A program made the translations under genes and the position numbers. From assembly GCA_044892525.1 (NCBI GenBank), contig CM097887.1, positions 42,966,001 through 43,030,000 on the forward strand: DNA of 64,000 bases. The letters are read 5' to 3'. Source of the stretch: Schmidtea polychroa (lineage: Eukaryota). This document shows positions 320 through 60,389 of the stretch, in pieces; within the stretch, counting starts at the first letter, position 1, and each line of letters opens with the position of its first letter. The notes under the pieces were generated by a model, which was given only the letters and a program-made list of their open reading frames with translations, was not told the origin of the DNA and made no database searches.

Positions 320-1375
320 TTATACGAAGGTTTCCTCCTGTCCCACATAACCTTCATCACTATCGACCGCGGGATGCAACTGTATCGCAATAGGGTCATA
401 GGGTAGGTAATATTGGGGGATTTGAGCTCTCAATTCATTAATTTCGTCTCTTAGAGCTCGAGTGATGTTCAATTCCTCGTCGAGCAGATAGGTGAGATAC
501 CTTGTCTCTTCGTCTTTCGCCTCTATTTGTTTGTCTAGGGCCTTGATTTTCTCGTCGCCCTTCCATTTTTCAATTTCTATTTCTAAGTTTTTAATATTTT
601 CGGTATACATTTTCCTCTCGTTTTCTAATTTTTTATTTTTTCCCGCTAGGACCATGTTTCTTTGTTCCAGCGATCCTTGTAATCCATTAAGGTCTCTTTT
701 CATCTCTTCGACCTGATTTACTAATTCCACAATCCGTCCTGCTTGTTGGGTTATCATCTCTTCCATTGCGGCGTTCTCGTGCTCTCTTATGTCGCATTTC
801 ATTGCCAAATGTCGCTCAAACTCCATGGCTTTTGTTTGCCAGGTTTGACTTCGGGCGGCGACCTTTCTCAACCGTTTCAATTCTTCCTTTATTATTAAAT
901 TCTCCTCCCATTTACCTTGTTCGCTTTCATATCCGAGTCTCATGGGCAATTCTTTCATCTCTTTTTTCATTTCACTGTTTTGTCTTTTCCATTTTCTCGC
1001 TTCTGCCACTAAGTGCATCATTTTCCTTCCTTCTATTTGCTTTTCCGCTTCGCGCTTGGTGTTCTCATCGGTAAGTCTCTTTCTCGCTTCCTGCACTAGC
1101 TGCTTTAAGTAGTGGCTGTGCGCTTCTTGGCGGGTATTTTCTAATGATGCCCATTTTGATGCTCTTTTACATGCTTCGGCTTCCTCTCTTAAATTGTGGA
1201 TTAGCCATTGATATTTACTGTTCTCATCTTCTCTAGCTTCTTCGATGTAGTTTCGGGTGAGGTTAGTTAGTTGGAACATTACTTTGTTCCATTTTTCGTT
1301 ATATTCTCTGGGAATTTGTGTCTTGTGGGTATTGGTTGGGGCTATCGTATTTTCGGTTATTCTCTCTTGTGTCAT
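320..1375 (-). CDS. Accessory long coiled-coil protein (351 aa)
   Basis: Intronless E/K/R-rich heptad-like sequence with the same A-rich strand bias as the polyprotein. Confidence 0.8.
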   Translation of the reverse strand: MTQERITENTIAPTNTHKTQIPREYNEKWNKVMFQLTNLTRNYIEEAREDENSKYQWLIHNLREEAEACKRASKWASLENTRQEAHSHYLKQLVQEARKRLTDENTKREAEKQIEGRKMMHLVAEARKWKRQNSEMKKEMKELPMRLGYESEQGKWEENLIIKEELKRLRKVAARSQTWQTKAMEFERHLAMKCDIREHENAAMEEMITQQAGRIVELVNQVEEMKRDLNGLQGSLEQRNMVLAGKNKKLENERKMYTENIKNLEIEIEKWKGDEKIKALDKQIEAKDEETRYLTYLLDEELNITRALRDEINELRAQIPQYYLPYDPIAIQLHPAVDSDEGYVGQEETFV

Positions 1376-1567
1376 TTCTAAATCATTGATATAGATTAAT
1401 CTCTTTTTTAAAAAAAAATTTATTTATTGGTTACTGGCCCGTTGGAAATTTTTCGCATCATTTTTGGGTTTTCGTATTTAGGGTTTTTCATACCATTATT
1501 ATATAATATTTTATTGGATATATACGCCGATATATACAGGTTATTATATACAACATTATTCGATGGG

Positions 1568-2956
1568 TTACTCCGTTCTACCCTTTCCTTCCCTTCGTAC
1601 TGTCATTTTTATATATATTGTGTCATTTCTCGTCATCTCTTCCATCTTTTGCTGCAAGATGAATGTAGGCGCTCCCGATGCTGCTCCTTCCTCATCAATA
1701 GGTCGCCGGTAACACAGCTGGGTTCCCGTCGTTTTAAAGCTTTGTTCGTGGACGCTTTGGTCATTCATCATTGCGATATCGATTTTTGCCTGGAATGGCC
1801 ATTCTATTATTTCGTCATATTCCCCTTTACATAATAGAAAAAATATCGAAAAATGTGTATTCAATCCGGTTCCATCTCCGTTGGGATATATCCTTATTTT
1901 CATCTTGTACCCATTTTTCCACGAATGGAATGCAGGACTTGTTATTCTTGTCTCTTCTCCGGTTTTTGCTTTTCGTATTCTTTCTTTTACTTCCGTTATT
2001 TTCCATATGTAGGGTGCTGTTGGTATTACTTCATTTAGATTTATTTCCCGTATTTTCTGGTGTAGCTCCTTGGCCTGATTATTACTGATTTCTATTCGGT
2101 TCATTTGCATCTTTATGTTTGCTCGGGCTTCTTCGAACGCTTCCCTTTCTTCTAGTAGTTCTTTGACTAACACTTTCAACGATGTTATCTCCATCTCCAT
2201 TTGTTTTACTTTCTCATCGCTTTCTTGTAACGCAGTCGACCACATTTCTGCGTGGGTTGAGGCATTTTCTACTAAATGATGTGGTAACTCTCCTCGGTGT
2301 TATAGTTTCTGACAGCCCCATTTACCTAGTACACATATCATCCTTTTCTTCTCACATTCTTTTAAGTGTTGGGCTATTTTTATTATTCTCCCTTCCTCGC
2401 ATCCGTTCGGGCATTCCCCACTGAACTCTGCACATACCTTTTCTTCTTGGACATTGTGATGTTTGATGGTGAGATTTTTCCACGTATCTATTTCTCCACA
2501 ATGTTCACATCTTTCTAGTCTCTCTTCACACTGGCTATGATGCTCTTTTTCTTCGCTTGCTCGAATGGTTTTATGGCACCTTTCACACTGGCCGATTCTA
2601 TACATACATTCCCCCATATGTTGCACTACCTTCCATATTACTCCTTTCCATTCGCATGGGGCATTTTTGCATCCCAGGTTGGTGTTTAACATGTCTTTCA
2701 CGGCGGCTTTATCCTCGTTAGTGTCTTCTAAACTCGATATTAGTGTCTCTTTGCACACCGGGCACCACTGCGGTCCATTCTTTATTGCTTCACTGATACA
2801 TTCCTTACATACTCTGCATCCACATAGGGTTTGGTGGGGTTCTTTTAGTAACTTTTCACATATTCCGCACATAACATGTTTGTGTATTCTGATCGTTGTA
2901 GATTTTCGGATTTGCTCGACAATCTCTCTGAACTCTTCTCTTTGTCGTTTATCCAT
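1568..2956 (-). pseudogene. TRAF: Element-borne intronless TRAF homologue (RING, TRAF zinc fingers, coiled coil, MATH/TRAF-C) with one in-frame TAA at 2300-2302
   Basis: RING CGICEKLLKEPHQTLCGCRVCKEC...CPVC; TRAF fingers CKNAPCEWKG...HMGEC and CERC...HHSQC; MATH YIWKI...SPAF...GYKMKIRIYPNGDG...THFSIFF...GEYDEIIEWPF. ORFs 2300..2956 and 1568..2245 share one frame (cag aaa cta TAA cac cga). Confidence 0.92.
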
Positions 2957-3041
2957 TCTATAATTATATGTACATATAGTTCTTATCGATACAGGTTCGA
3001 TATTTTATTTAAAATTATTTACATTTTAAGCTAGGTTTGGT

Positions 3042-3401
3042 TTAGGGTTCGGAAGAGTCGGCTTCGTGTCCGCTCTCCTCTCTATTCATTAGCCATTCCG
3101 ACCAGTCTTCTATTTCTGTCTGTTCTGCTTCCTCCATCATTCTTTCTAGTTCAATTTCCTGTCTATGGCTATATTGGGTTATCCTCTCCATTTCTCTTTG
3201 CATTTGTTCGATTTTTAACCTCTGGTCTTCAATTATCTTCAAATAACTAAATCCTCTGTTCATACTCTCGATTAGGTTTCTGTGCATCGTCAGTCCTTGT
3301 TCTTGCAAATTGGACACTAATTGTGCTAATACGGCACATTGTTGCTTCCATAATTCTTCAGTTACTGTATTGTGGTTCATTTCGTTATTTCCTTGATCCA
3401 T
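3042..3401 (-). CDS. Accessory small coiled-coil/acidic protein (119 aa from the ATG at 3401)
   Basis: ORF track 3042..3425 starts at TTG; the first ATG is at 3399-3401 (MDQGNNEM...). Confidence 0.7.
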   Translation of the reverse strand: MDQGNNEMNHNTVTEELWKQQCAVLAQLVSNLQEQGLTMHRNLIESMNRGFSYLKIIEDQRLKIEQMQREMERITQYSHRQEIELERMMEEAEQTEIEDWSEWLMNREESGHEADSSEP

Positions 3402-3561
3402 TCTTAATTTATATCCACTTTTCAACTCTTATGTAAATTTAATTTTATTTTATGATTCCCGTTATTGTATAATATTGATACCGCGCTTATATAAAGATAT
3501 AGTACTGTTATATACATAAGATATACTTACTTTTTACAATTATATACAGTCATATTCCTTT

Positions 3562-4116
3562 CTATATACGTGAGTTTGGAGGGCGCTGAACGTTCCAGGC
3601 CTCCACCCACTGTTCTTGTTTGATATCACTTGGTCGTTTCACTCGATGTTGGAAGTTTCTGATTCGGGTCATTTCTAGTTCTCCGCGATGTCGTTTGTCT
3701 TTAATTATTTTTATTGTTCCCCCCGTTATGATTAGGAATGCTCCTGTTATTATTATCCCACTGATCCACATCATCTGCTTCACGCTTATACTCTCTGGTT
3801 TTTCCTTGTTTGTTAATGTTGATATTGCTTCTGTACTTTTCTCGTTCCCTCTTTTGCCATTCCCTTTCATCATCTCTCGTATTCTTGCTATTTCCTCGTT
3901 CATACCCTCCTTTGCCATTTTTTGTATTTTTTCCATCTCTTCCTCCGAAACATAGTTGTCCTGAGCTTCCTCGCCAGTTTTCTTGTGCTTTCCTCCTTCG
4001 TCCTTTTCGTCGTGGTTTTTCCTTTTCTTTCCTCTTTTCCCCGGGTATCGTCGGCATTCTCTTTTTGATTCGTATATTCCTTCGGGGGCTGCTGCTGCGT
4101 CACATATTGATGGCAT
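3562..4116 (-). CDS. Membrane-anchor ORF overlapping the polyprotein end in the -1 frame; probably its true C-terminus
   Basis: TM helix MMWISGIIITGAFLIITGGTIKII followed by a basic tail. One extra A in the A5 run near 4016-4020 would fuse it to the polyprotein. Confidence 0.7.
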   Translation of the reverse strand: MPSICDAAAAPEGIYESKRECRRYPGKRGKKRKNHDEKDEGGKHKKTGEEAQDNYVSEEEMEKIQKMAKEGMNEEIARIREMMKGNGKRGNEKSTEAISTLTNKEKPESISVKQMMWISGIIITGAFLIITGGTIKIIKDKRHRGELEMTRIRNFQHRVKRPSDIKQEQWVEAWNVQRPPNSRI

Positions 4117-7100
4117 CTCTCACCCGGTCCTAATCTTGAAATACAGACTTTGTGCTCTTTTCTTGGTTGGAGCTGCGTTATTACTACTTCGCCACCTTTT
4201 CCGAGGTGTACCTCTTTTCCTTTAACGTTCGTTATTCTTTTCCCGTCTCGATTTCGGTATGCTTCTTGTATTCTTACTTCTGTTATTGGTTCTGTGTCCT
4301 CATTTATCAGTACTAGTTTCTGATACGCTCTAGACATGCATCTTCCTAGTATGCACCTTTCCTTTAAGTCCCATTCTTCCTTTAAATCCCACTGCTGCTC
4401 TTGTGCTTGCTTTTTCTTTTCTTGTTTTAGTTCATCCTCTTTGCTATCTTGATTCTCCGCTTCTTTGGTTTCTTTTATCGTTCTCGTCCCTCCATGAGCT
4501 GTTACTAACTCTATCATGGTAAGCATAATTATCATTAATATCATATTTGTCTCTATTTCTTTGTTAGTGAAAGGTAGGCATACCCTCTGTTTTCCATTAT
4601 TCGGTTTTTCCTCCTCTTTGGTCTTGGTTCCCGGGCTGTTTCCCTCTCTTTTCGTATCCGAATCCTTGTTTTCCGGTTTATCCTCCTCCGGTTCTCTTTT
4701 CTCTTTATCCTCCTTTCGGCCTTTTCCGTTATTGTCATCGTGTTTATCTCCCCCGCTGTCGTTTAAAATGTCGTCCTCGACATTTATATCGTTCAATAAT
4801 CTGCGATATGCTGTTAGCACTCTGTTTCTTGCTAATTTTGCTTCGAATTCAAACTCCTTTCTGCCCGTTGCAGCGTGTCTCTTTCTATTCCATTCTTTGA
4901 CTAATTCTCTTAATTGAATGCGACGATGTTTCCCAATTCTTTGTTGCTCGCTCTGATTTTGCGTGAATTTGAGGTCTTCTCTGTTTAGTACTATTAAAAT
5001 AATTTTTGGTGTCCCCCCTTTAGTTAATGTATTCTTTACCATCGCGTTTTCTCCGTTTTCGTAGAATTCGTTTATATTTATCGCATATTTATTACTTTGT
5101 GGTATTCTCCATGTTACTAATAATTTCATTGCTTCCAGATTTTTCCGTACCGTATTCCACTGAAATTGAGATGTGTTTTTGCATATATTTTCAACTTCTT
5201 CTTTTGTCGCATTTTTGCAAATGAATCTGATCATTTCTAAGTTTGGCTGTATGGTTGCCCAGTCCAAGGTGGAATTTCCTTCATTGGACCTTTCGTCTAG
5301 TCTCGATCCCGATTGATGTAGTATGTGGAGTGTTTTTGGGTGTATTTTCGTTATAGCTGCATACATCATGGCGGTTTCGCCTTGTTCATTTTTCGTGTTG
5401 GTTTCCTCGCCCATATCTCCAAGGATTCTCATGATCGTTATTGCTCTATTTTCTTTCGCTGCTAGTATTGCTTGTTGTAGGGGTGTTCTGGAATCCTTCG
5501 TTACCATCGTAAATGCTCGAGGCAAGAAGGTTTTGATTTTCCCGATATCTAAACCCGTGGTTTGATCTCTTGCGTATGTATGTACAGCTTTTATTATTTT
5601 TGACAATATTATTTCGTCTGACAACTCTAGCATTTCCTCAAAGAATACCTCTTTCGCTTTGCGTATTATTGCCTCCTGATCTATACTCATTGATTTTGTT
5701 TCGATGACGTTATTTGTGACCTTTTGGTTCGTTGTCAATTTTGGTTCCCTTGATTTCCCATACCTTATTTTCGTTTTCTTTCCGTTTGGATTATTGATTC
5801 GTTCCTCTGCTGTAAGTATTTGGATAATATCCAGGTAATTCTCGCGGATGTTATTCATTGTGTCCATCATATATAACACACTTACCGTTTCCCAATATTT
5901 ATTTCGTACTTGGTTAGTAAATTGGAATAGGGATTTTTCGAATGTGTCGATTCGCTTTTTTGCTAACTGTTCGTCTTTATGATTTGTGAATTTTATCCCT
6001 CGTTCTAGTAATTGATTCGGAATTTCGAATAAATGATGTCCTTTCATAGCTTCTCTCATCAGCGTGTTCTCTCCTCTCGTGAACGCTTCGTTTACGTTGA
6101 TCATATAATCGTTTTGAATTGGATTTCTCCATGTAATTAATATTCCGGTAATTGTTGTCAGTTTTTCTTTGATCGCTGTTAATAATCCATCATACATGTT
6201 TCCGACTTCCCGATTGTCCTCATATGATAGTAGTTCCATCAATGACGTGAACGCCTCGGTGCTTTTCCCTTCGATAGCATGATGTAGTGCATTTTTCCGC
6301 TCGTGGTCTTGTGTAGTTATTTTTGATCCAGTATCAAGTAATGCGGTTATAATGTCTTTGGTTTTTCCTGTGTTTGCTGCTATCATTAATGGTGTGTAAC
6401 CTTGGTTGTTTGTTTGTTCTGTTGATCGCTTGCAGTCGTGAAATGCTTCTATTGTTTCTAGTATTAGCTCGTTGTTACCTACTTTCATGAGTTTGTGTAA
6501 TGGTGTGTCTCCGTAATGATCTGTTATTGTAAATAATATCGGCCATTGGCTTTTGACTACTCGCAATAACGGATGTGTCCTCTCTCTGTTCGCATAATTT
6601 TCGATCATCGTCAATAATCCTCCTAATATTTCGAAATCTAATCGATCTTTTGCCCATCCAGGTATTTTAATTTTTACCTCTTTTACAATCTTTTCTGCTT
6701 CTGATGGTTGGATACCCAATCGTCCGGTGATCGGTTCTGCGAGTTGTTGCATCATGTTCATTCTGTATGTTTGCGAACGTGTGGTTAATGTTCGACCTTC
6801 TGGTTGACTGGTGGCGGTTTTTGGAATTGATTTACATCGTGCCACGTTCACGTATATTGGCCTGGTGAATGGATTATTTATCAATTTCACTCTTACATTG
6901 GTTTCGCCTACGAATAAGATCTCATATGGTCCTTTTCCGTTGCGTTGTAACTTTTTTGTGGTTCCTGGAATTAATTCCGGGGTTTCTATCATTACCCAAT
7001 CACCTGTTTGAAACGTATGTTGCTTCACGTTTTTCTTTCGATCGTGTAAATCTTTATAACTTTCCTGGTAGAACTTGATATTTAATCCCGCAATTTCCCA

Positions 7101-10100
7101 AATTTCTTGCATTCTTTCCTTGAATTTCGTAACATAATCGTCGATCTCCATATACTGCGATATCGGTGGTTGGTATTCCAGGTCCATTGGCATGTTGCAC
7201 TTTCTTCCGTACATTAATTTAAATGGGCTCATTTTCGTTGATGCATGAATTGACATTCTGTATGCCATAAGACATAGGTTTATATATTCGTCCCAATCTC
7301 GTTGGTGACGATCGACGTAGTTTGATAACATTTGTATAAGTGTTCCATTAAATCTTTCCGTCATCCCATTGGTTTGAGGGTGGTATGGAGATGTTCTTAG
7401 CTTTGCTATTTTGAAGTAATTTGTTACTTCGTTCATTATTTCACTCATAAAATTAGTTCCCTGATCGGTTAATATCTGTTTTGGTGTTCCGTATCGGCAG
7501 CATATCTCTTCTACCAAGATTCTTGCGATTGTTTTAGCTTTTTGGTCTGGCATCGCGAATGCTTCTGGAAATTTCGTAAGAAAGTCTGTGATCACCAGAA
7601 TGTAAATATTTCCTTTATCTGACTCTGGTAGTGGACCAACTACGTCCATGGATATCATTGTCATTGGTTCTATTGGTACTGGCATTGGCGTTAAAGGTGC
7701 TTTCCATTTCGATCCAGTATTCTTCCTGGTTGCACAAGTTAGACAATTTTTTACCCATTCGGTTACATCTTCAGTTAACGTAGGCCAAAAATATTTCTGC
7801 TTCATTCTTGCTAACGTCTTTTTCGATGACATATGTCCTCCCAATCTCCCATCGTGATATTGCGTTAGTAACTCTTTTCGTCGGTTTTCCGGTATACACA
7901 TTAATCGTTTTTCCCCATCCATTATCAGCAACCAATCTTTCTCTATAATATATCGGTGTCGGTGTTTATCCATATGTTCTTTTAATTTTTGGTCTTTCGC
8001 ATATACATCTGTCTTTCCGGTTTTTACATAATCGATAATTTGTTTTAATTCCGCGTCCTCTTGTTGGTCTTTTCGCAATTGACAGAAATCCAAATCTTCC
8101 GCTACTATTAAGCATATGCGTTGCATTTCGGAATCCACCAACTCTGGAAAAATAAATCTTGACATACAATCGGCGTTGGCATTTGCTCTTCCCGCTTTGA
8201 ATTTTATAAATGGGGAGTATTCTTGCAATTGCATGGCCCATCTCATCAGTCTACTGGACGCTTCTTTATGTTGCCCTAACCACACCAATGGTTGATGATC
8301 TGTGGTTATACATATCTCATGTCCCCATAGTAAATATCGGAAGTGTTTGATAGCTTGTATTATAGCCAATGCTTCCCGTTCTGTTACCGAATAGTTCTTT
8401 TCATGCTTTTTGAATGTTCGGCTGTAATACCCGATTACTCTCTCTTTTCCTTCATCGTCTAATTGTCCCAGAATCGCACCTGCCGCGTACCCGCTTGCAT
8501 CCGTTGCCAATAGAAATGGCTTCTTAAAATCTGGGTGTACTAGGATAGGTGCTTCGATTAGTTTATCTCTCAGCGTTTCAAACGCCTCTTGTTGTTCCTT
8601 CCCCCAAATGAACGAAATGTCCTTCTTTACTAATTCCTGGATTGGTTTTGCAATTCCTGCATAATTTTTGATAAATTTGCGATAGTATCCGCATAATCCT
8701 AGAAATTCCTGAACTTGGGTGACCGTTTTCGGTGCTGGACATGTTTTTATTTTCTCAATGTTTCTTGGATCTGGCTCCTTTCCTTTAGCTGACACTATGT
8801 GTCCTAAAAACGTGACTTTTTCCTTTGCCCAATCGCATTTTGATGGTTTGAGTTTGAGTTTCCACTGTCTTAATCTAATAAATACGTTTCGGATATCTTC
8901 CAGATGTTGTTCAAATGTCGCTGAATAGATTAGTAAATCATCAATATATACCATACATTGTTTGATTCCATGAGTGACAAAGTTCATACACCGTTGAAAT
9001 GATGCTGGTGCGTTGGTCAGTCCGAATGGCATTTTCCTGAATTGATATAGATTTCGTCCCAACGTGAAAGCTGTTTTCTCTTTGTCCTCATCTTTGACTT
9101 TAATCTGCCAGTATCCACTTTTTAGATCTAAAGAAGTAAAATATGCTGCCCCTTGCAACATCAATAACATCTCATTGATGTCCGGCAATGGATAGGTATC
9201 TCTCTTGGTTACTGCGTTTAACTTCCGATAATCGATACAGAATCGTTGGGTGCCATCCTTCTTTTTCACCATGACCACTGGGAATTGCCAAGGTGAGCAA
9301 CTCGGTTCGATTACTTTTGCGTCTAGCATCTTTTGTACTTCTGCTTCGGCTATTTCTTTTTGCATTTCTGCTAGCTTGTATGGTCTTAATGCAATTGGAG
9401 TTTCATCTATGAGGGGTATTGCATGTAGGGTAACATCGCATGTACCCAAATCTAAATCTGAGATGGCGAATATATCTTTATATTCCACCAACAATCGGTG
9501 CAATTTTTTCTTTTCATCATTCGTCAACAACATACTATCTATTGTCCATAATTCATCATCTTTGATCATCTCGTTGGTCACTTTCGGTAATTCTATGTCC
9601 ATCATTGGGGTCAATCTTCCCAATTTTTCGTTCTCATAAATGATTTTGTCTTCTTCTTCGAAATTCGTGATGTTGAGCGGTATCACTCCTTCTTGGTTTA
9701 TTGTTATTATTTCCCTTGCGAGTGGTAACTCTCGTCGCTTTTCGAATGATTTGCTTGGTTCAAAGATAACTTCTCCTTCCATACCCGTATCCACTTTTAT
9801 CTGACAAATCATCTGTGATTTTGCTGGTACTATTATTTTTTCTGGACATCTGATTACTGCATTCATTTTGCATATTCTACCGGTTTTGTCTTTTAGACAC
9901 ATAGTGGTTAAGTCAATTACGACTTCTTTTAACAATTCTGGCATCAGGTCCGTTCCGATTATGCATGGTACGCTAAGTTTTGGTATTACTGCCAAATACG
10001 TTTCAATTTCGTTGTCCTGGTATCTCAAAGTAGTCCACCATCTTCCGACCACGTCCACTGTTTCTTTACTACATGCTATGATGTGAATTGTTGTTGATTC

Positions 10101-13100
10101 GATATCTTTCCAGTGTTTACTGGGGATTTGATTAATCGCTATCGCTGATACATTAGCTCCTGTGTCTATCATGGCATTGGTTTCTTTACCATTGATTTGG
10201 ATCATGACTGTTACTGCTGGACCTCCAGGTAGACTCATCGCTGCGATTGTTCTTACGTCATCTGCTTGATCTACACTTTTGGTACGTCGTGTCGGCATAT
10301 AATGCATACCGGGTTGACTCAGTAATTGCGGATACATATTTTGTGTCATGGTCAAAGCTGCTTGTGGTCCCACGATATCCGGTGGTATGTAGCTTCCATT
10401 GGCGATCCAGGTATTTGTCTTTTCCTTTTCCCAATATGGTGCCGTTTCCATTGGTTTTTCGTTTGGGTTTCTGTTTGGATATAGACGTTTATCGTTCCCG
10501 TCATCATCGTCGTCACTATCGCTGTTAGATGATTGGCTTCTAAATCGGTCCAAGAATTTTGGCTTATTCTTTTTCAATTGTCGTCTTGTTGCTTCATCGT
10601 ACATTACTTTCCGGAATCGTCTGCCCACTTCCTCGTCGGTTCCTTTAATCTTCGTTAGTATTTTAATCAATCGCTTTATCCGATGAATGTCTTTTGAGTG
10701 ACCATGTAATACCATGGTTTTAGCTAAAAATGGTAAGAAACCTACTATCATTTTCCAGTTAACTTTCTTTTCCCGCTTGTATATATCGAAACAAGCTAAC
10801 ATTTGTGTTAGTATTACTCTAACTATCTGAATTATGAGTATGATCCCTAATATCCCGGCCATCATTTGTCCAAAAACTAAGAATCTTCCCCACATTGCTT
10901 TCATCATGTTTGACGTAGCTTGTTGAAAATGGTCTGGCGATAATAGCAGCTCGTAATTCGGGCCTGATTGATAGTTTGTGCCCCCAGTTATTGTTACCAT
11001 ATTAGACAAAATGGATTCTCGTCTGGCTGGGAAGAGTACGTTAAGTCGTGCTGTTTCTAGATCTTCTGGGGAATACATACCACCGTTTGACACGTCTATA
11101 GGTTTGAAATCCAGCTCTGTGGCGAGTTCTATTAATCCAAATTTCTTGGGTTCCTCGGATATGGTTTTTCCCGGTAACATCATCCATTTCCCATCGGGTC
11201 TTTCATACAAAGGTCCGTATGCATTAGAACAGTTAAAGAGATTTGGGTAGAAACCCACTGGATTCATAATTCTAGTGACTGGTTGGACGAATCGATTTTG
11301 TCCTTTATAACGAATTTCTAATTCATTTGCACATCTCTTTTCGGGTAGTATGGATTTTTCTGGCATTCGTGCATACGTCTTGGTACACTGGTATGTGTAC
11401 ATCACTTCTCCTACCATTCTACCAAAATGTCCGTCTGGTAGTGGGAGTGATGGCATCGTGTTATCGGGGTGCGTTATCGCAATAGCTAGCTTTGTTTTCA
11501 ATATTTCTTTATTCAATGAACAATCGTTTTGTATCAGATCGTAATATACTTTTTGCAGGGTCGTTTGTCCACGATGAAATAGAAAATCCATTTTATTATT
11601 TGCATATAAGTATAGTTTTACGTCCTCCGTTGCTATCTTTCCCACTGCTCTATCGATTATTTGTCTCGACATATAGATACCAGCGTAATTGGTTTTATAT
11701 ACTATACTGTCACATTTGGTGGTTTCTTTCTCTTTGATAAATCTCATACCTAGATCTAGATCGTCTGTGATTAATGCTGTTGGTGTCTTCTGCGTTGAAA
11801 GTCTCTTTTCTCTGGGAGATGGTGGCATTGGTTTTCCATTTCGCATTCTCACTCTGTCGTTTCCATCCTCGTCGTTCTCGTTCTCATAAATTTCTCCTTT
11901 TACTTCATTGAACAAAGCACTTTTTAACAGTTGGAGTCGGCATTTTTGGGTATTAGCATCATAGATTATAGTTGATACTCCTGTCCTGCATACGTTTTCT
12001 GTAGCTCTACATGCTGGGTTGGTCTTCATTTGATAATTATTTGCGTCAAATTGCGCTTCGTATTCCTTTAGTTCAACCGTATAGGACTCGATCACTACTA
12101 CTCCCGATATTACCTCGCCTCGGATCGTATACGTACCTCCGTTACATGACCCATCTGATGATTTTACTTTTCCGGATACGTAAACACTTTCGGTTTTAAT
12201 CATTCCAGTTTGTCCGTGAATCGTCACTCCGTTATGCATTTTTAGCGCTCCGGTTCTAAATAGCTCTTTACAGTCCTCTCGTTGTATTGATACGATTTCT
12301 TTATCCAGACCGGGTAGTATAAGAGTCGAATACGAATATTGTCCACAGTAATATGCGAGTACCTTTTTTGATACTACGCATTCCCTTGCTTGCGTTCTGA
12401 TGAAATCTGATTCTTGATATACATGGTAAGTAACTTTTGTTCTCACGATGTCCAATTTGTTGGGTGAGGCTTGTCTGCATTCTTCTATGTCTCTCAATGA
12501 GTATTTATCTCTCATTATCATATTATCACAATCGTAGATGGTAAAACCTGTTGCTCCACTTGTGCACAACATCCATATCATCATAGTCATCATTAACGAA
12601 TTTATTGATGCTTTTCTGCTTGCGGGATCTTTCATCGGTAGTTCCCATTCTAGTTCATTTAACAGTTTTTTCAATCTAACTTGCATCGACCTTTCTTGCT
12701 CATTTTTTCGTGGCGCTTGTATCAGTCTTTTCCATCCTCCTGCACGAATAATATGTGGTTCAATAGTATTCTCTATGATTGAAACGGTCATTTCCACATG
12801 ATTTGCAAACTGTTTATTTGGTATTTTCCTCGCAGCTAGTCCCATCAAATTATACATCAAATACGTGATTACCACTAGATGATGTTCGTCATCATTTGCA
12901 TTTGTCGTGAGCTGCTCAATCACTCTCTTTGTTTCGTCCCAATCCGTTTTGGTGGTTTTCGTTTTCTCTTTGATTAACTTTGGGATTATCCCCGAAATGG
13001 TGTGCCATAATTGTCTAGCTTCCGTGCTGGCTACTTTCCGTTGCCACAAACGTCTAAGTTGTGGGTTTGTTATTATTAACATATCTTTTAACAATTCTCG

Positions 13101-16100
13101 TATCCATTTTTCTCCTCTTTCGATCGTTGGTTGGGCTTCCTTTAGATCCCATACTATTTTATCCAATTTTTCTAATCGAACTTGCCCTTGTTCTTGCTTT
13201 AATTGTTCTTTGGTTTTGAACTCAGACTTTTCTCCTTGTTTCTTAGGTCTTCCTTTTGCCCGTTTTTCCATCATCGTTCCGGCTTCTCTGGTATTTTCGT
13301 AATTCGGATTTCTTTCGTTGTCCGTTCTGGGTAATGAGCTATCGTTATTTCTTAGCCACTCATTCCATTCGTCTATTATTTTATCGGTTTGACCTTCTGG
13401 TGTTACTTTCGTTGGTTCTCTTTGCTTCTGGAATTGTTCATCCGTTTCGGTTTCCGTAGTATTGTCGATGATTTCTTTGATGTTCAGTTTCGTTGGTTGT
13501 TGATAACTCGTTGATGGCTGGTTATTAGTCCACATTTCGGCTCCTGTCGGCCATCTCACTAATAGCGGTGATCTTTCTCCTGGTTCATCGTCACTATCTT
13601 CCAGGATTATCTCTTCAACTTCTTCAGTTTCATTAGATTTACTTGGAGCTTTGTTCGGACTTGGAGTACTCAAACTGCCTTTTGTTGGTTTAGTAATTTT
13701 ACTTTTCCTTTTTAACGGTTTCCCCAACGTTTCCGCCATTGTTAATACATTTGTCTCTTCCAATCTCATGGGTGTTATCCCGACGTCTGCATTATCGTCT
13801 AGTGATTTTCCGAACAGTTGTAGATGGAATGGAGTTTCATATGCTAATTTCTTTTTTAATTCTCTAATTTTTGTTGTTGGATGCACCTCTAGTTCTTCGA
13901 TGCTCTTGTCCGGATACTTGATTCGGATGTGATACCTCTCCTGAGTGTCTTGTGCCCATTCCTGATTTCTCCATTTTCGAATAATTTGTTCCAGCTGTTC
14001 TGGATACCATTCATTATATTGCCGGTATTCCTCTATTGCCTTTGCCATTTCTCTCAGATTGTGGATATTCTCTGATGTCTTTAGGATGATATTAGCCAAC
14101 GCTACCACCTGGCGTTTTTGATTTTTCGCTCCCATTGCTAAAATATCGCCTAATTGTTTATATCTTTCTTTCTCTTCTCGCTCTCTTGCTTCAATTGCTT
14201 CCTCGCCGTCCATATCGGCATATTCTCGTTCCTTTTTCCTCATTGCATGAATATGTCTCGCTTCATTTTCGCTTTCTGATGTGACATCCGTCTCGCCTTC
14301 GTCATCTGATGTCTGTTCCCTTGCTTCCTCTTCATATTCTGGAGGTTCCTCTTCTTCTTCCTCCGATTCACTTTCTGTCTCACCAATGTCTGTTTCTACG
14401 AAGATCCCTTTCCTGATTTCCCATTCCTTATTTTCTGCATTCCACACTCTTTCCCATGGGGTTCGTCTGCAGGATCTGGTATTTAATTTCGTGATTTTTC
14501 CTTGTAGCTCCTTTTCTTTTAACCATTGTTGGTGGATTTCAATTATTTCTGTAGATTTTTGATATAACGTTTTCATCCGGTCTCGTATTTCTTTTTGATA
14601 GGTTACATCTCTTGTTCGGAATTCATCCATTGGTACTATCCTGATTATCTGATGATTGTCCCACATACCCATTTCGCTTAACGAGGTGTCGTCCTCCGCT
14701 CGTAATATTATTTTGTCGTACATCATGACTACATCATCCACCATACCATCACTACTTTCGCTACGTACCTTTTCCGTTATCTCTTGGTTTATTTTTGATA
14801 CCAAGTCATCTACTGTACTCTGATTGCTCATTTTTATTCGTCGTTTTTCTTCGTTCGGTAACCATATGGTTATTTCCAACCTCTGTGGCTGGGTTTCTTT
14901 TAACCTTCCATATTTGTGGATCAAATTTATGGTTCTCCAATCACTCATCCGGAGCATTTCTGTATCTCGCAATCGGCTCATTAGTTCGTACATGGCTGGG
15001 GCTCGTCTGGTGATGAGTAAATCCCAGTTGTCTTCTACTTGTTCTTGAATTTGTTTGATCAGCTTATCCAGGTTTCGTCTCAGAGTACATTGTTTTATTT
15101 GTTCTAATTTCAATTTGATATTAAAATCATATTCTGCCTTGGCATCTTTAGCCCAATCGTAAAGGTTGGCTGGTTGTTTTTCTTTGTGCAACTTTAGTAT
15201 TTGCGTTTCTCCTGGCCATATTAGTGCATCTACTAAGTGCATATCTGGTTTGATCTGTTCTCCTTGGTATTGATACAGATATTCTTTCTTTCTCGAACTT
15301 CCCAAATGTTCTCGTATCCAATCGAAAAGTTCGTCGGTGACTGTATTTTTTATCCACATTCTTTCAAGTCCTCTACTCGTTCCGATTTTTATTACATACC
15401 GCGTGGTATCGGCCTGCTTCATTTTTTCCATATACTTTTTTATAATTGATTTTTCCTCGTTTGGTATTAGATCTTTCTCGTTTCTTTCCAATTTCATCAC
15501 TTTTTGCACGAATCGCCTGAATGGAATTACGTCGATGAACTCTTGGTTCCTCACTACTACTGGGAGTATTTCGGCTACCTGTTTTATCGCTTCCTCCCTT
15601 GCTTTTCTCAACTTTATCTCGATATCTTCGTCTTCACTTTCACTGGTTATCTCGTTTTCGCTTTCTTCCTCTTTGATTTCCCCTTTTGGAGGTTCGCTTA
15701 TTTCATTCAGCTGTAGTATTTCTCCACCCAAACTACTTACATAGTCTTCTTCTTCGTCTGACGATGCTACATCTTTTATCCTTTTCATCATATTGATTTG
15801 CAAGTTTCTCATCCTTGGTACTCTCTTTAGTTTCTTTCTTTCGAATATTGTTGTTTCTTCTGATTCTAATTCTTGTAGCATTTGGTGGTTTAGTTGACTG
15901 GTTTGTTCCTTGCTCTTGTTATTTTCATCTTCTGTCGCGGCTTTCGCTTTATTATGTTCTTTTTCGATTTTATCTTTTATCTTTTTCCAGAATATTTTCT
16001 GAATTCTCTGGTTTCCTTTTAAAATCGTGGTTGAATTCTCTGTTTTCATTTCCGTTGTTGTTTCTGTTACCTTTTCTGGTTCAGTCATGGGTACTACCCT

Positions 16101-17396
16101 TGGGTTTTTTCCGTAATTGTAGCAATACTGGCTTTTCATGTCTTTTACTAACTTCATCATATTAATTCGCAATGGTTGTTCTTGTCGTTGTTGGTTGCGT
16201 TCTTGTTTTATCCTCTCTTCCTCGGCCTGTAGTCTTTGCCATTCTTGTACATGTTGATGCACTTCGTAATTGTTGAGATTTTCGGTACTTCTCATCATAC
16301 GTATATTCTGGGTTTGTTGTGGTGCTGATTCGGGTCTTGGTCTCATCATTTGTTGCATCATCTGTTTCATCTGCGAAATTTCCTGCATAACGTTCATTTG
16401 TTTTCCTTCGTTAGGGTTACTTTGTCGTTGCGGATTCGCTATATAATTATTATTTCGCTGTGGTGGTCGTTGTTGTTGACCCCTTTCTCGGCAATCTCTG
16501 GAGATGTGACCTGGCTGACCACAGTTAAAACAACCTCGCAATTGGCATACATTTTCGGTATGTCCACGCCGTCCGCAACGATTACAATTTGAATTTCTAT
16601 AACAATCTCTGTCCCAGTGTCCTGGTTTACCGCATGTTCGGCACTGCTTGTTATCGTTCATATTTCGTCGATTATTGAAATTGTTCTCATTATTCGGGTT
16701 GTTACGATTACCATTATTCCCATTTGATCGTCCTTGTGGTGGTTTGAAAATTTGGTGCGCTCCTGGTATAAATTGATTCATTTTCGGTTCTTGATGGTTG
16801 TTATCTCCGTTATCCGCTTTCGCTATTGCTGTCGCTATCCTTCCCTCCTCTTGCATAATATTCATTTGAGCTGGAAGGTGGAGCTCGCATCTTGTAGCCC
16901 AATCTATGGCTTCCTCTAATGTTTTGCACATTTGACACCCTACTGAGGCTCTTACTTCTTCTCGGCGTAATCCCTCTATGAAATAACCGATCAAATTTTC
17001 TTCTGGTAATTTCCCATTCATTGCTTTCTTTGCCAATCTCCGCAATTCGCTGGCATATAACGTAATGGATTCATTTGCCCTTTGTTTCCTATTTGCTAGT
17101 TCGCCGAGTGCTTGATTTATTGGTTTGCTAGCTCCGAAAGTTTTCTTCAGGAATGTTTTGATATCTTCCCACTTCTCTAATTTCGTATCTCTCTCTTTAG
17201 CTTCTAAATATACTTCTAATGCACTATCGCACAAAAACAACGGCATCCTTTTACTAATTGCTTCGGGTGTCCATCCACACACAGTGATATAAACTTCAAA
17301 ATTAGTTATGAACGTTGCTAGCTTGTTTGCATTTCCATTGAACGGTTCTCCTCGGAACTTTTCTTTATACTCGTCGGTTTTTACGACATTCGTCAT
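3900..17396 (-). CDS. gag-pol: 4498-aa Gag-UBLx3-Bcl2-Env-PR-dUTPase-like-RT-RH-IN-ANK-FN3 polyprotein
   Basis: 13.5-kb open frame with a Retrotrans_gag-like N-terminus, 3 CCHC knuckles, MIDTGA, YIDDLL, ATDAS, H-H-C-C zinc motif, D-D-E triad and GPY motif. Confidence 0.97.
   Translation of the reverse strand: [4498 protein letters not shown]
5100..6540 (-). other. Two ankyrin-repeat modules C-terminal to integrase
   Basis: [64 protein letters not shown]. Confidence 0.9.
6765..8100 (-). other. Integrase with HHCC zinc motif, DDE core and GPY/F module
   Basis: [10 protein letters not shown]...CLTC; [36 protein letters not shown]. Confidence 0.96.
8160..9400 (-). other. Reverse transcriptase and RNase H
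   Basis: [51 protein letters not shown], YIDD (8937-8948); FLLATDASG...[11 protein letters not shown]...TDHQPL...NADCMSR. Confidence 0.97.
9870..10230 (-). other. Aspartic protease
   Basis: [19 protein letters not shown] (DTG at 10158-10166) and CIIGTDLM. Confidence 0.95.
10250..12605 (-). other. env: Env-like class III fusion glycoprotein (chuvirus/gB-like) embedded between Gag and protease
   Basis: Signal peptide [23 protein letters not shown], 14 ectodomain cysteines, motifs [26 protein letters not shown] and [13 protein letters not shown], then [30 protein letters not shown]. Confidence 0.85.
12720..13170 (-). other. Bcl-2-like domain within the polyprotein
   Basis: [19 protein letters not shown] matches the BH2 pattern (Bcl-xL YLNDHLEPWIQENGGWDTF), with a gap-free alignment back to the BH1 position. 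Confidence 0.7.
13730..15405 (-). other. Three ubiquitin-like (beta-grasp) domains (~15185-15405, ~14625-14885, ~13730-13940), each preceded by a helical block
   Basis: UBL3 [29 protein letters not shown]...[10 protein letters not shown] aligns with ubiquitin IFVKT...LEVEPSDTIENVKAKI...LIFAGKQLED. UBL1 and UBL2 keep the same pattern more loosely. Confidence 0.7.
16491..17396 (-). other. gag: Gag: capsid domain plus three CX2CX4HX4C zinc knuckles (16491-16643)
   Basis: EPFNG...FITNFE...W...[10 protein letters not shown]...[12 protein letters not shown]...[17 protein letters not shown]...FIEGL; knuckles [28 protein letters not shown] and [14 protein letters not shown]. Confidence 0.95.
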
Positions 17397-18773
17397 GATT
17401 GGTGTTCTAGGTTCGTCTGTTTCTTTTAAATTGTCTAACGATGTGACTAAACTTTGGGCTGATAATTCCTCGGTTGACGTTGCTAAACTATTAGTGATAT
17501 CGGACAGACTTTCTCTACTTCGAGATCGACTAGGGGTATATCCGAGATTTTCTTGGTCAAATATGGGTACTTGATTGGTTCTTCTTGCTCCTTGTGATAT
17601 TCCTCGTTGATGTTTAATAGATCGTCCTCTTTTGAGTTGTTGTAATTCGTCTCCTGAAAATAATACGTCTCCTGGCTTACTTGAAGATCTAAGATTGGGT
17701 TTATCCGTGATTCCTTTCTTACGCTTCTTGGTAATTAGCGGCTATTGAATTGGACGAGTTCGGTTCTGATTGTGCTTCCTTCGATAAATATTCTGTATGA
17801 ATCTGCTACTGAGATCCTGAGGAGATTTACTAATCCTTGGCAGATGGCTGCTAATACTATGAGGTTGAATATATCGATGATTCGTTCGAAGTTGGAGATG
17901 TCGCTATCTGTATCTTCTTCCGTTCTGGAGTCTTCCGGTTGCTGTGTCTCTCGGTGCGGGTTCTGAATGGATTTATCCTTGGTTGATTGTCGATTTCTTC
18001 GAATTCCTTTTGTGCAGGTTCTGGATTGTCTTGGTTGACTGGATTGGCTTGATATCTAAAATGAAAAAATGATCTCGTGTTGCATTTGCTTACACGACTT
18101 CATCATTCTTTCAACAACATTTGAACACAGACACCTTTTAGGTTCTGTTTATGCTTCCCCTATTTTTTTTTTTTTTTTTATGCAATTACTTCCGCGGGTT
18201 ATAATCTCCCATCAGCCCGTATTTTCCGTCGATTTTAAATTATCTATATGGGGTAGTAACAATTATCTATAAAGTCGTAATAATTATCTATTCGTTATCA
18301 ATTATAGTAAAAATAGGTCGTTGTCGGTCTCTGCTTATTACCCCCCTTCGTTTTCTTATTCCTTTGCGCTGTTGTCGCTGTTTTACTTTTCATATTTACT
18401 ATTATCCCACTCGGTTCTACTCTGGAACCGATAAAAATACATTTTCCCGGTTTACCCAAAAAAAAATTCCGTAGAGTTTCTCTACTTCACTGGGATCCCT
18501 TTAATTAGCTAGTTACTTTCTTCTTCTACTCATTATCTCCATTTCACCTATTCTTTATTTTCTCATTATTTCTTTAATTCATTTTCTTCTTCTCCTTCCT
18601 TTTTCATTATAATTTTATTATCTTTTCCCCGAGCTCGTTTATTTCCTCTCTAAACTCAAATTTTCGTAATTATATTCAATTTGTTTCTAGCTAGCTTTAA
18701 TATTCCCTTTCTCTATTAATTTTAAATATTATCTCATTGTAGCTTAACTGCTATTTCTCATTTTTCTAGGCCT

Positions 18774-19146
18774 TTACGACTGGCTGGCACTATTCCACAG
18801 CTCAATCTTCTTCCTTCTGATCGGTTGGACTATTCAACAACTCGATCTTACGACTGGCTGGCACTATTCAACAGCTCAATCTTCTTCCTTCTGATCGGTT
18901 GGACTATTCAACAACTCGATCTTACGACTGGCTGGCACTATTCAACAGCTCAATCTTCTTCCTTCTGATCGGTTGGACTATTCAACAACTCGATCTTACG
19001 ACTGGCTGGCACTATTCAACAGCTCAATCTTCTTCCTTCTGATCGGTTGGACTATTCAACAACTCGATCTTACGACTGGCTGGCACTATTCAACAGCTCA
19101 ATCTTCTTCCTTCTGATCGGTTGGACTATTCAACAACTCGATCTTA
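18774..19146. repeat. Tandem array: 5 copies of a 74-bp unit in the element leader
   Basis: Units start at 18774, 18848, 18922, 18996 and 19070, with a single variant base in copy 1. Each unit is a diverged dimer (ggctggcactattcaacagctcaatctt / ggttggactattcaacaactcgatctt). Confidence 0.98.
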
Positions 19147-19701
19147 ATATTCCCCGCTCTGCATGCTTCTACTTCTCTTTTCTTCTTTTACCCTAGATTA
19201 CCATTTTCTCTGTCTACTTTTAATTTGTCGACTTAATCTTTACCGCTTGAGAGTGTTTCCCCTTTCCCCCCTTGCTCGAAACGCACGACGATAGCGATGA
19301 TCCGTTTCCACATTGGTATGGTGATCAGTCATGCCGCAGAAACTTCTCATCATATGCGATGGTACCCCGCCCTACGCTTCTTACTTGGGTTGATCAGTTA
19401 TCCCCTCCCAACGGGTTCTTGCAATAAAACGTACCGCCCGAAGGTGGCTCGGTTTGTACCCCTGCAGCCTATATTGGGACTAATTCCACGTTAGTTTTAT
19501 TCTTCTCCATTCGATCTCATAACCAAAGATATAATTAAAAGAGATAAAATATCTAATTCATAACAACAAAAAAATTTTTATTTATTCTGAGACTAAAATT
19601 AAACATTAAAGTTATTTCACACTTAAAAGTACATATATTCGTATTCAAAGGTCTTTTAACAATTTAGTGCGCATATACATCACTGCATCTGGTTAGTCGT
19701 T

Positions 19702-20187
19702 TTAATCACCGTAATAAACCATATGGGTTTCTTTTATCCCATTTTTACATATTGCACATCGTTTCAGATCTTTCACGCACTCTTCACAATGACTGAGGTG
19801 TCCACAAGGTAAGAATAGTATGCGTATAGGGCGAAGATTGCAAGACAGACAGGTTCGCAATTTGGTGAGTTTCTCTTGTATCTTTTGTTCGATTGCCTCT
19901 GATATTGTATGTAGTTGATCTTTTATTCGCTCGTATTCTAGATTTAGGGCCGGGTTTTTTAGTCGTTTTAGGTACCATTGGTATACTGTTTCTTGATTTA
20001 TCTTTTCATCTGAGTGGCTTAAACCTGCGGCCAATAACACGTGATTAGGTACGACTGGTGTATGTCCGATTGCTTGGAGTAGAATGCTGTTGATTCGCTT
20101 TCTTTTTTGTATGAGTGTTCTAATAGGGTCGTTTTCTATATTAATGAAATTGACTAATTGTTGTATCTGTTCTGCGAATTCCGTCAT
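19702..20187 (-). CDS. Accessory protein with C-terminal IAP/MDM2-type C3HC4 RING (161 aa), located between PBS and gag
   Basis: CLSCNLRPIRILFLPCGHLSHCEECVKDLKRCAICKNGIKETHMVY at the extreme C-terminus. A strong acceptor-like tract precedes the ATG. Confidence 0.88.
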   Translation of the reverse strand: MTEFAEQIQQLVNFINIENDPIRTLIQKRKRINSILLQAIGHTPVVPNHVLLAAGLSHSDEKINQETVYQWYLKRLKNPALNLEYERIKDQLHTISEAIEQKIQEKLTKLRTCLSCNLRPIRILFLPCGHLSHCEECVKDLKRCAICKNGIKETHMVYYGD

Positions 20188-20459
20188 GTCTATTGGGAAA
20201 AGGGAAAAAAAAAATTTTTTTAAATAATATACAGCTAATTAATGGTTATTTCATCAAACATTTTTCTTTTTAAATCGTTATAATTTATTTTGTTTTTATT
20301 CTATTTCCCTATTATTTACTTTATTTATATCTTTAATTCTATTATTTTCTAATCGTGATTTATAATAAGATTCGATAGGCATTAGTCAATTTACATTCGC
20401 CCACTAATTGAAATCGATAATCCCGGTGAATTCACATTATTCGACAGAAATTCCATAAT

Positions 20460-20477: not shown

Positions 20478-22255
20478 AAAATTATGCTGGGGTAGTGCTT
20501 GGTTGACTCTGCTCAATCTACGTCCTTGTCTAGGGGGTGCGTGCCCATATCATTACGCTACATACGCCCGTGTCAACCCGGAGCAGGACCCCGCACAACT
20601 TGCCCTCCAACATAGCACCCGCGAATTGCTTCACGTTGGAAATGTGCTATGTCGGCGAGACTCCAGTAAGCAGGTGAGCCCCTACCTTAGGACTACTCCT
20701 TACTGAGGCCTCGACTTCCCTTTTCTGACGGCCGATGGAAGGACTTACGTCTGTTTACCTCATCAGATTCTCCCTCTACCCTGACCCATTATTCGGCACA
20801 AAATTGACCACTGCCTCTCGAACTCAAACTTTACTCTCGCTTTGCGAACGCTACGCTGAACCTTTGTCACAGCTAGTTAGATTTAAACAACAACAAAAAT
20901 TTAACCAAATATTTCTTTATTTTATTATCATGATACATTAGAGAATTATACACTACATAACGAGTACACTTGGTGGAGAATAGATTAAGAAGAAAAAGAG
21001 TCAAGATAGTTTATTTGTCCATTCGCACCCTGCACGGTTGCATTGTGTTGCGGCCATCACTTCTCCCACCCCGCATCCGCCAATAGCTCCTCTAGATCAA
21101 AAAACTCGGAGGCATTCTCCTCCCAAGTCACACCAGCGGCAGATATGATTCGCCCTGGGATTCCTACGGTCAGATCGATCGTTACGGGTGGATCATTCGA
21201 AGCACTTAGGTGGTTGGCAGATAGTTCTCGTTGTTTGACCATTGCTCGTTCACGTTGGCGCTTTTTACGCTCCGCTCTGGACAATTGGCGGCGCTTAGGT
21301 TTTGAGGGGTTGGCAGACAAGATTGCCGAGGACGTCGTGGCTGAATGCAATACCTTGCCAGTGCCGGTAGTAGGTACGTCCGATGGCCTGGGGGAGAGGT
21401 CGGCCTCCACACATTCCTGACAAGATCTTTTCGACAAAGGTGGCGAACTAAATGAAGGTTCATGGTGAACGGGGAAGACATTGTCCGCTTCTTTAATCGG
21501 AATACTAACAATCCTTCGGGTTGTAGCGGCTTGAACGTAAACTTTATGTAGAGCTTCGGACTGCTCTTTGATTAGGCTACGCTGAGCTCTACTTTCGCTT
21601 ATCAAAGCATCGCGACAATGCTCACTGCGGTACAATTTCTTTTGAACTTCCTTCATTTGTACTGGGCTAAACCATGTACTTTCCAGATCGTCGATCTTCT
21701 TTTTATATCGACCGACCTGGGCCTGTAATTCTCGGATTACGGTATTTTTATCCGAGCAGGAGAAGCAGGGTTTGATGGGCGATTTCGTGCTTGGCAACAT
21801 CTTTTGATAGCTGTAATGAAGAAAGAATAATGGAGATAAGACGAAAATTGGCTAGCTCTACTAATCTATCAGAGTAGCGTAATTATTTATTAAGGCTCAT
21901 AAATTCCCTACATCACATTCATGGGTTGAAATGACCGACAAGAAGAAAACGGAATGACTGTTAGCGAAACTTCCTGTTGATCGATATTACATCCGTAAAG
22001 TAATTCATAGGTTTACGGGTTAACAAATTAATTCTCCCCCCCCCCCCTTTTGCCCAACATGATAATTTGATTGCGGATTAGGAAAACTTGTCAATACATG
22101 AGCGTGACCAGATTCGACTTTACTATCAGCAAAACAATTCAGACAGGTGCAATACATCGGGATAATAAATTAATTAAAAGATTTGAGTTTATTCGCGATT
22201 ATAATACTCTAATTTGAGTTAATAGTAAATGCGTGCGATTACAAAAAACTTTACA
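20478..22255 (-). repeat. Putative 5' LTR (boundaries unverified)
   Basis: Lies immediately upstream of the PBS; AATAAA at ~20921-20926 (minus); candidate TG starts at 22025, 22243 or 22255. No second LTR is in the window for comparison. Confidence 0.45.
21057..21800 (-). CDS. 247-aa ORF inside the presumed LTR: CxxC, coiled coil, basic NLS-like stretch, acidic C-terminus
   Basis: Open frame preceded by acceptor-like ttctttcttcattacag; contains KPKRRQLSRAERKKRQRER and EFFDLEELLADAGWEK. Confidence 0.65.
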   Translation of the reverse strand: MLPSTKSPIKPCFSCSDKNTVIRELQAQVGRYKKKIDDLESTWFSPVQMKEVQKKLYRSEHCRDALISESRAQRSLIKEQSEALHKVYVQAATTRRIVSIPIKEADNVFPVHHEPSFSSPPLSKRSCQECVEADLSPRPSDVPTTGTGKVLHSATTSSAILSANPSKPKRRQLSRAERKKRQRERAMVKQRELSANHLSASNDPPVTIDLTVGIPGRIISAAGVTWEENASEFFDLEELLADAGWEK

Positions 22256-59774: not shown

Positions 59775-60110
59775 CTAGCCTACTGATAAATAGATCATAT
59801 CTTTGTAAAAAGTGTATCTGATGTTTTTGAGATTTTGCTTTACGATACATTTCATTGAGAATCTTTGAGCCATGACAAATCGCTCAGGAGAATATACAAT
59901 ATTTACTGAGAATACAATATTTTCTGATGCTTCTTGAAATGTTAAGGTTTCCAATTCCACATTTAAACTAGTTTCAGTAGGTCCTTTAACAATACATTTG
60001 TATCAAACCAAATCCTGTCTTCTCAATTCATCGAAAGTAATGCGTTCATCATTGCTAATAAATTGACTGTTCTTGTACCAAGCGTATCTGGTGTTTGCTA
60101 ATTTAGGAAT
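59775..60110 (-). pseudogene. Immunoglobulin-domain remnant
   Basis: RYAWYKNSQFIS...ITFDELRRQDLV*YKCIV, then a second domain start MKCIVK...YTFYKD. Confidence 0.5.
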
Positions 60111-60389
60111 CACATTTCATTTCATTGAATATGACTCTCATATTTTTGGGTTGTTTGAATATTCACAATTGCGATGGTACAGTCTCCATCATCCGAGTGT
60201 GATTGTTGATTTTTTCTTGACATCCATTGACTTGATATTCTGTGATCTGACGACGATTCAGAGTATAAGCAACAACTTTACAAAATAGATATTTTGTAAT
60301 GTACATTCGATATAGAAGTGAAGCATTTCGTTGATCCACAAATTATTCTAATACCAGAGTTGTGAAGGAGACGCACTGCTTGAACAATT

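Follow-up and report, generated by a model that had tools for sequence, protein, structure and literature searches.

Giant Gypsy-like elements of planarians, described as Burro or GYPSM1 (Jurka 2007 and Grohme 2018, as summarised in parts of a 2019 review, PMC6431247), are already listed with MATH_TRAF_C, BIR, Bcl-2-like and ankyrin cargo, so that TRAF/MATH cargo in Burro-group elements has been published. Burro1 carries its MATH domain inside the polyprotein, and an element of Dugesia tigrina has it in an upstream ORF. The same parts of the review do not settle whether Burro cargo interferes with the apoptosis and ubiquitin machinery of the host. Burro1 also bears B-IAP, a host-derived cell-death regulator with BIR and RING domains and with reported functional tests, which is reported to guard stem cells against apoptosis (Lee et al. 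2026, Dev Cell, as relayed in passages of PMC13465017). Outside retroelements, a TRAF homologue borne by a genetic parasite is ORF111L of the fish DNA virus ISKNV, which is reported to bind TRADD and to promote caspase-8 apoptosis (passages of PMC3352826). As for the hosts themselves, 121 MATH domains were counted in planarian (excerpts of PMC6109357).

Here we describe a 462-codon TRAF gene of Schmidtea polychroa which sits between the two 3.9-kb LTRs of a 29,807-bp Gypsy LTR element, on the minus strand of the 64,000-nt stretch that was analysed (the window). In contrast to Burro1 and to the D. tigrina element, the full-length TRAF is a separate gene downstream of pol, and no MATH domain was found by Pfam in the 4,613-residue polyprotein frame. 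Since MATH lies outside the polyprotein, the element is not Burro1. The gene resembles Burro1 B-IAP as host-derived cargo of a Burro element, but it is a different protein, known from sequence alone; its likeness to ISKNV ORF111L is one of description. We found no paper that describes a Burro family with a complete TRAF behind pol, or selection on such a gene, Grohme 2018 and Lee 2026, the likeliest sources, lying outside that search.

The TRAF gene and its carrier element

The TRAF frame starts at an ATG at 2956 and ends with a stop at 1568-1570 (Table 1). A sequence-only reading had placed RING, zinc fingers, coiled coil and MATH in a single 462-codon frame interrupted by one TAA, with a CGCRVC motif in the RING. 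Translation gave the same picture, motif included. That reading had named no strand; the minus strand is the real orientation, the plus strand of 1568-2956 being riddled with stops. In a Pfam scan where the break at codon 219 was read as X, MATH was matched with E 8e-26, and the RING with E 5e-4 and 20.3 bits, slightly short of the cut-off of 21. The top solved-structure matches of MATH were TRAF2, TRAF3 and TRAF1 (E 2e-29 to 4e-28), and the RING and zinc-finger part matched pieces of TRAF5 and TRAF6 (E 4e-14 and 7e-14). Cysteine ligands of the fingers were kept in 29-30 of 30 copies. The putative coil region, assigned by position and make-up, can be aligned with the coil of TRAF2/TRAF3, and E, K, L and M abound in it.

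Table 1. Features of the element and of its TRAF gene (window positions, except for the 3' LTR, which lies left of the window)
Feature	Position	Strand	Basis or occurrence
5' LTR, 3,919 bp, TG...CA ends	20485..24403	-	LTR comparison
Upstream accessory ORF, cIAP-like C-terminal RING, no BIR	19702..20187	-	sequence matches
Leader tandem repeat of 74 nt in about five copies	18774..19146	.	sequence
4,613-codon polyprotein frame	3900..17741	-	Pfam
Polyprotein tail, out of frame in the window copy, indel in the 4050-4100 bin	3562..4119	-	continuous with main frame in 27/30 copies
Small accessory ORF upstream of TRAF, without Pfam match	3042..3401	-	ORF list, Pfam
AG just before ATG, possible splice acceptor	2958..2959	-	in 30/30 and 40/40 copies and 6/6 family-B genes
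Accessory TRAF gene of 462 codons, with a break at codon 219 in the window copy	1568..2956	-	translation, Pfam, structure matches
RING finger, residues 30-68, eight Cys ligands	2753..2869	-	Pfam
Five TRAF-type zinc-finger modules, residues 96-235	2252..2671	-	alignment with host TRAFs
Nonsense codon TAA, codon 219, inside fifth zinc finger	2300..2302	-	private to the window copy
Putative coiled-coil (TRAF-N) region, residues 236-312	2021..2251	-	position and make-up
MATH / TRAF-C domain, residues 316-453	1598..2011	-	Pfam, structure matches
AATAAA, possible poly(A) signal, 52 nt after stop	1510..1515	-	in 27/30 copies
Accessory ORF downstream of TRAF, rich in coiled coil, without significant Pfam match	320..1375	-	ORF list, Pfam
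3' LTR, 3,917 bp, left of window	G000:C3:42960597-42964513	-	LTR comparison

The two LTRs differ by 0 substitutions and 3 small indels, and a 4-bp target-site duplication flanks the element; with no substitutions between the LTRs, the insertion must be very young. Placing the TRAF gene between them bears out the link to a retroelement proposed earlier. The gene order is RING ORF, 74-nt repeat, polyprotein, small ORF and TRAF, followed by two coiled-coil ORFs and one that probably encodes a membrane protein, where the coiled-coil and membrane-protein labels of the last ORFs come from reading the sequence by eye. Within the polyprotein frame we identified Gag, three CCHC knuckles, a fusion glycoprotein, protease, RT, RNase H, integrase and ankyrin repeats. 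The glycoprotein is mononegavirus-like (Monjiviricetes_fusion, E 1e-69) and lies in frame between Gag and protease. The same frame holds a weak Bcl-2-like match (E 0.087), for which sequence search matched no Bcl-2 structures, and weak matches to ubiquitin-like folds (E 0.02-0.04). No BIR was detected in the 8 element ORFs scanned; beside these, the element has a 254-codon coiled-coil ORF at the window edge. No tRNA gene was found within the window. A 264-codon open frame with no Pfam match is found inside both LTRs (21057-21851, minus strand, in the window). A 219-codon ORF, also without Pfam match, lies left of the window before the 3' LTR (L031:8745-9401, minus strand) and has an apparent signal peptide and transmembrane stretch.

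We assign this element to the Burro group of giant planarian Gypsy elements by the published description of that group. The common features are the length of about 30 kb, long LTRs, MATH/TRAF cargo and a single giant polyprotein, which comprises Gag, three CCHC knuckles, an env-like protein before the protease and ankyrin repeats. As to cell-death and ubiquitin cargo, TRAF and an IAP-type RING are clear here, and the Bcl-2-like and ubiquitin-like matches are weak. Burro polyproteins measure about 4,900-5,100 residues, compared to a 4,613-codon frame whose tail is out of frame in the window element. Burro1 has a BIR, and this element none among the ORFs scanned.

For all 4 accessory ORFs tested (320-20238, minus strand), an AG occurs within 4 nt before the first ATG, against a background of 0.24, and three of them have an AATAAA within 60 nt after the stop. 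This pattern hints at a spliced or trans-spliced scheme for Burro accessory genes, cis and trans being indistinguishable from it. No splice joint was seen in the contigs of four public runs over parts of the TRAF gene; as the RNA status of these runs is a guess, their contigs speak neither for nor against expression.

Origin of the element TRAF

A genome search for MATH returned 1,551 candidates, of which the best 150 were scored. These comprise host genes and two further Burro families, B and C, beside the window's own family, A. Family B (L063-L065, L068, L079, L080) has a full-length TRAF downstream of pol, 30% identical to the window TRAF, whereas the pol regions of A and B are 58-79% identical. 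One family-B copy (L065) carries a BIR ORF directly behind the TRAF, and the RING ORF of the window shows no match to it. Family C (L071, L072) has MATH only, inside a 4,791-codon polyprotein as in the Burro1 layout. Counted by eye, about 80 of the best 150 matches show the family-B pattern and about 93 look element-borne, with pol homology nearby in 7 of the 8 inspected; 13 of the 150 lie in frames longer than 2,000 codons. Host MATH genes also occur in clusters (G000:C2, at about 110-124 Mb and 1-5 Mb; L039, L041, L043, L045-L062) with open frames of about 180-210 codons. They form a clade apart from the element TRAFs, showing that a genuine host expansion exists too.

Planarian host TRAFs (Smed-TRAF-2A/B, PMC7586133; Dendrocoelum lacteum TRAF-2 and TRAF-4; and the loci L033-L036 of this genome) share with the window TRAF the domain order, the length, the five fingers and the all-Cys RING. 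They differ from it by lying outside elements, with a host-like base composition and a conserved MATH loop. Identity of the A and B TRAFs to the nearest host TRAF is only about 29-31% (31% for the window's), and the closest host TRAFs have no DNA match to the element. No Burro polyprotein was found in the 10-kb flanks of host TRAFs, where short and distant RT- or integrase-like pieces occur near 2 of 9 loci. Third codon positions of the window TRAF (A/T frequencies 0.45/0.15) resemble those of the polyprotein (0.45/0.18) and not those of five host genes (0.31-0.38/0.30-0.44).

Database homologues for phylogeny were taken from a full HMMER search, a word-indexed search having given 2 matches. 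The A and B TRAFs, together with unnamed database proteins that may themselves be element-borne, form one clade among flatworm-type TRAFs, with support of 97 in a quick tree of 41 rows, 96/90 in a pruned tree with a simpler model and 97/88 in a 23-row tree with a mixture model. The polyprotein MATH of family C was unplaced in the quick tree. A clade of A, B and C obtained 97/93 when 15 of the 41 rows were dropped under the simpler model, and 92/91 on the 23 rows under the mixture model. In a MATH-only tree, A and B grouped at 89/61 and the polyprotein MATH was again unplaced. These groupings are to be read with the odd amino-acid make-up of the element rows, by which mutual attraction is possible.

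Both the position between LTRs and the trees thus uphold the earlier proposal of a host-derived gene carried as LTR-element cargo. The trees place the element TRAFs inside flatworm-type TRAFs and pick out no single donor. The 31% identity to the nearest host TRAF, the element-like base composition and the presence of a 30%-identical family-B TRAF in the same clade together suggest that the capture is old. One old capture for A and B, which C might share, is the best reading of these comparisons.

The sequence-only reading had singled out the replacement of the RING His by Cys. This Cys is present in 70/70 element copies and 6/6 family-B genes, but also at the same position in 8/8 host TRAF frames of this genome which have a RING (three other host frames have none in the open frame), as well as in D. 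lacteum TRAF-2 and TRAF-4. In a set of 150 database representatives the residue is His in 78, Cys in 21 and a different one in 15, and the remaining 36 lack the motif. Cys is itself a zinc ligand, and the all-Cys RING is probably intact. As judged by this distribution, the change is ancestral and was not born in the element; the host TRAF that was captured already possessed an all-Cys RING. It is no special property of the element gene, and the His-to-Cys change as the mark of a decoy was rejected on the same host and D. lacteum sequences.

Absence of introns had likewise been taken to indicate a captured mRNA. The closest host TRAFs, themselves single-frame genes like the loci L033-L036, run open from RING to MATH over 454-473 codons. 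Since they also have no coding introns, an intronless copy is no proof of mRNA capture and this argument was dropped. Template-switch capture of RNA is the usual route for LTR elements.

Selection on the gene and lesions of the window copy

Two sets of copies were collected. A DNA search gave 363 candidates, the best 40 of which were scored and 30 taken (the window and 29 others); all 29 others retain element flanks, one being truncated at one side. A 28-nt start context was found in at least 150 genomic places, and 40 more copies were taken from 100 among the matches listed, in roughly coordinate order and from two contigs. A full-length TRAF frame (450-475 codons) is present in 23 of the first 30 and 33 of the further 40, i.e. 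56/70 copies, in a sample biased towards whole genes, since copies had been picked for their similarity or for an unbroken start context.

Codon 219 is open in all 29 other copies of the first set and in the 38 further copies that span it, so that the TAA occurs in 0/67 others. The stop was seen in 1 of 31 genomic places with identical flanks around the codon, and its exact 37-nt context occurs once in the genome. Alignment of paralogous copies at 2300-2302 thus supports the earlier suggestion that the stop is specific to one copy.

Ratios of dN/dS were estimated by the pairwise Nei-Gojobori method, on pairs which share ancestry and are therefore not independent. Between the window and 38 further copies the median was 0.12 (0.11-0.14), with dS of 0.33-0.54. 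Among the 38 copies the ratio was 0.17 overall (RING 0.12, fingers 0.12, coil 0.26, MATH 0.19); in the first set, young copies compared with older ones gave 0.16. Shared variants gave 0.17 and private ones 0.35 (Fisher p 0.002). Within the 15 youngest copies it was 0.55, as expected of unselected new mutations, a value that gives no support by itself.

These estimates, about 0.12-0.17 and far under 1, argue that the whole TRAF protein, with all four domains, is under purifying selection across the element family. Together with the private nature of the stop and the 56/70 full-length copies, they suggest that the TRAF cargo is functional and not dead. Dead hitch-hiking cargo, or an ordinary host gene beside the element, could be imagined from the broken window copy and had been named in the sequence-only reading as what a stop fixed in all copies with dN/dS near 1, or an intron-bearing host locus without link to the element, would indicate; with the low dN/dS, the integrity of most copies, the position between LTRs and a start context repeated in at least 150 places, both were rejected as extremely improbable. 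A retrotransposon family keeps a complete four-domain TRAF under purifying selection in at least 150 places, and the TRAF retained by its sister family is very different.

The window copy itself has two lesions. Its predicted product up to the stop has 218 residues, with RING and four fingers and without coiled coil or MATH. The stop is an ordinary lesion of a single copy, and the frameshift of the polyprotein tail is a second one. The TRAF gene of the window has 3 private codon states in 1.4 kb, compared to 0-3 in sister copies. Other broken copies have stops at other codons and break at unrelated sites. If the private TRAF changes were younger than the insertion, the LTRs should have gathered about 17 differences, and they show 0 substitutions; the private changes therefore probably predate or accompany the last copying round. 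As they were probably in place at insertion, the TRAF gene is probably dispensable in cis.

An error of assembly in the window copy, rather than a true mutation, is an unlikely source of the stop. The uniqueness of the stop would fit an error, as would the small inter-LTR indels and the polyprotein frameshift of the same copy, and in three public runs spanning 2301 the window's letter is in none of their contigs. However, contigs lose rare variants, so a single-copy allele would go missing from them; private changes are about as numerous in sister copies, and other copies have stops of their own at different codons. A functional stop (programmed readthrough, or a selected RING-finger-only product), to which a single in-frame stop with frames open on either side could point, was rejected as hardly credible since none of the 67 other copies spanning the codon shares it and other broken copies are disrupted elsewhere.

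Possible roles of the element TRAF

The reading we favour, with a probability of about 0.5, is that of a trans-acting TRAF adaptor or E3 ligase which would bias host stress signalling towards survival, beside the IAP-type RING and the Bcl-2-like cargo. The TRAF would be read off its own processed RNA, given the acceptor-like AG ahead of the ATG and the AATAAA past the stop. The protein may trimerise via coiled coil and MATH, as TRAFs do, and enter the TRAF/TAK1/p38-JNK stress signalling of the host, where it would serve as adaptor or ubiquitin ligase. With the IAP-type RING and the Bcl-2-like domain, it could let element-expressing cells survive long enough for new insertions. Acting in trans, it might be missing from a lone insertion without harm to that insertion. 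A survival role is suggested by the IAP-type RING aboard, by the BIR gene behind the family-B TRAF, by the pro-survival report on Burro1 IAP and by host TRAF knockdown in S. mediterranea, which causes cell death and lethality (sections of PMC7586133). Weighing on it are the altered MATH loop described below, the missing BIR in the ORFs scanned of the window's family and the weak Bcl-2 match. The apoptosis-promoting ISKNV ORF111L also counts against it, being the only viral TRAF we found in print (in the passages of PMC3352826 cited above). 

Possible, though on the doubtful side, is a decoy or dominant negative, by which the element TRAF would enter host TRAF trimers or take their partners and so damp innate-immune or RNA-sensing signalling against the element. 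A planarian traf2-1 acted as an inhibitor of infection pathology (parts of PMC4993586), which is in line with such an effect. Divergence of the A and B TRAFs well beyond that of their pol regions is what is expected of a host-facing protein. In the alignment, the window's family has a diverged MATH binding loop and family B a shortened one, whereas host TRAFs and the polyprotein MATH retain it. In TRAF2 this loop bears the receptor-binding serines, and its alteration would be as compatible with a changed partner as with a decoy. On the other hand, purifying selection on all four domains, RING and zinc fingers included, goes beyond the needs of a simple decoy, and the His-to-Cys change once proposed as its mark is ancestral.

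Use inside the element cycle seems rather improbable. The TRAF would here be a ubiquitin ligase or scaffold in particle assembly or release, protein turnover or removal of restriction factors, with host signalling left behind. The fusion glycoprotein, the weak ubiquitin-like matches and the second RING are consistent with it, as is the MATH embedded within the Gag-Pol polyprotein of the related family C; purifying selection at the level of the element also fits a benefit to the element itself. Yet the window copy was probably inserted with its private changes present, which makes a requirement for the gene in cis improbable, and the theme of the cargo (TRAF, IAP, Bcl-2) points to cell-death control.

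The earlier placement of TRAFs below TNF receptors and TLRs is drawn from vertebrates, and a review reports no TLR orthologues in planarians (passages of PMC7958881). A genome profile search for NF-kB (PF00554) and TNFR (PF00020) returned no matches, but its control gave no signal either. It is a speculative extension, which we regard as doubtful, that hundreds of intact, full-length element-borne TRAF genes, contributed by two or more Burro families, account for a real share of the TRAF protein in planarians, and that the host has come to depend on them for survival under stress, as is reported for the IAP of Burro1. If so, a small survival module of TRAF, IAP and Bcl-2 would travel with the element and be expressed from spliced sub-element RNAs, and some of the published 'planarian TRAF expansion' would be retrotransposon cargo. 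More practically, counts and knockdowns of planarian 'TRAF genes' may take in element cargo. The TRAF of the window's family would be a clean family-specific RNAi target for the question of Burro interference with apoptosis and ubiquitin systems.

Beyond the element, a BED-finger transposase, hAT-like by reading and split across two frames, adjoins it (24854-26629, plus strand). A 676-codon single-frame ORF (36034-38064, plus strand) gave a weak HAP2-GCS1 match only (E 0.0013, below cut-off). From their sequence appearance, we take three further regions to be fragments of a hAT transposase (44649-45116), a DDE transposase (50951-52140) and a decayed LTR element (57709-62385).
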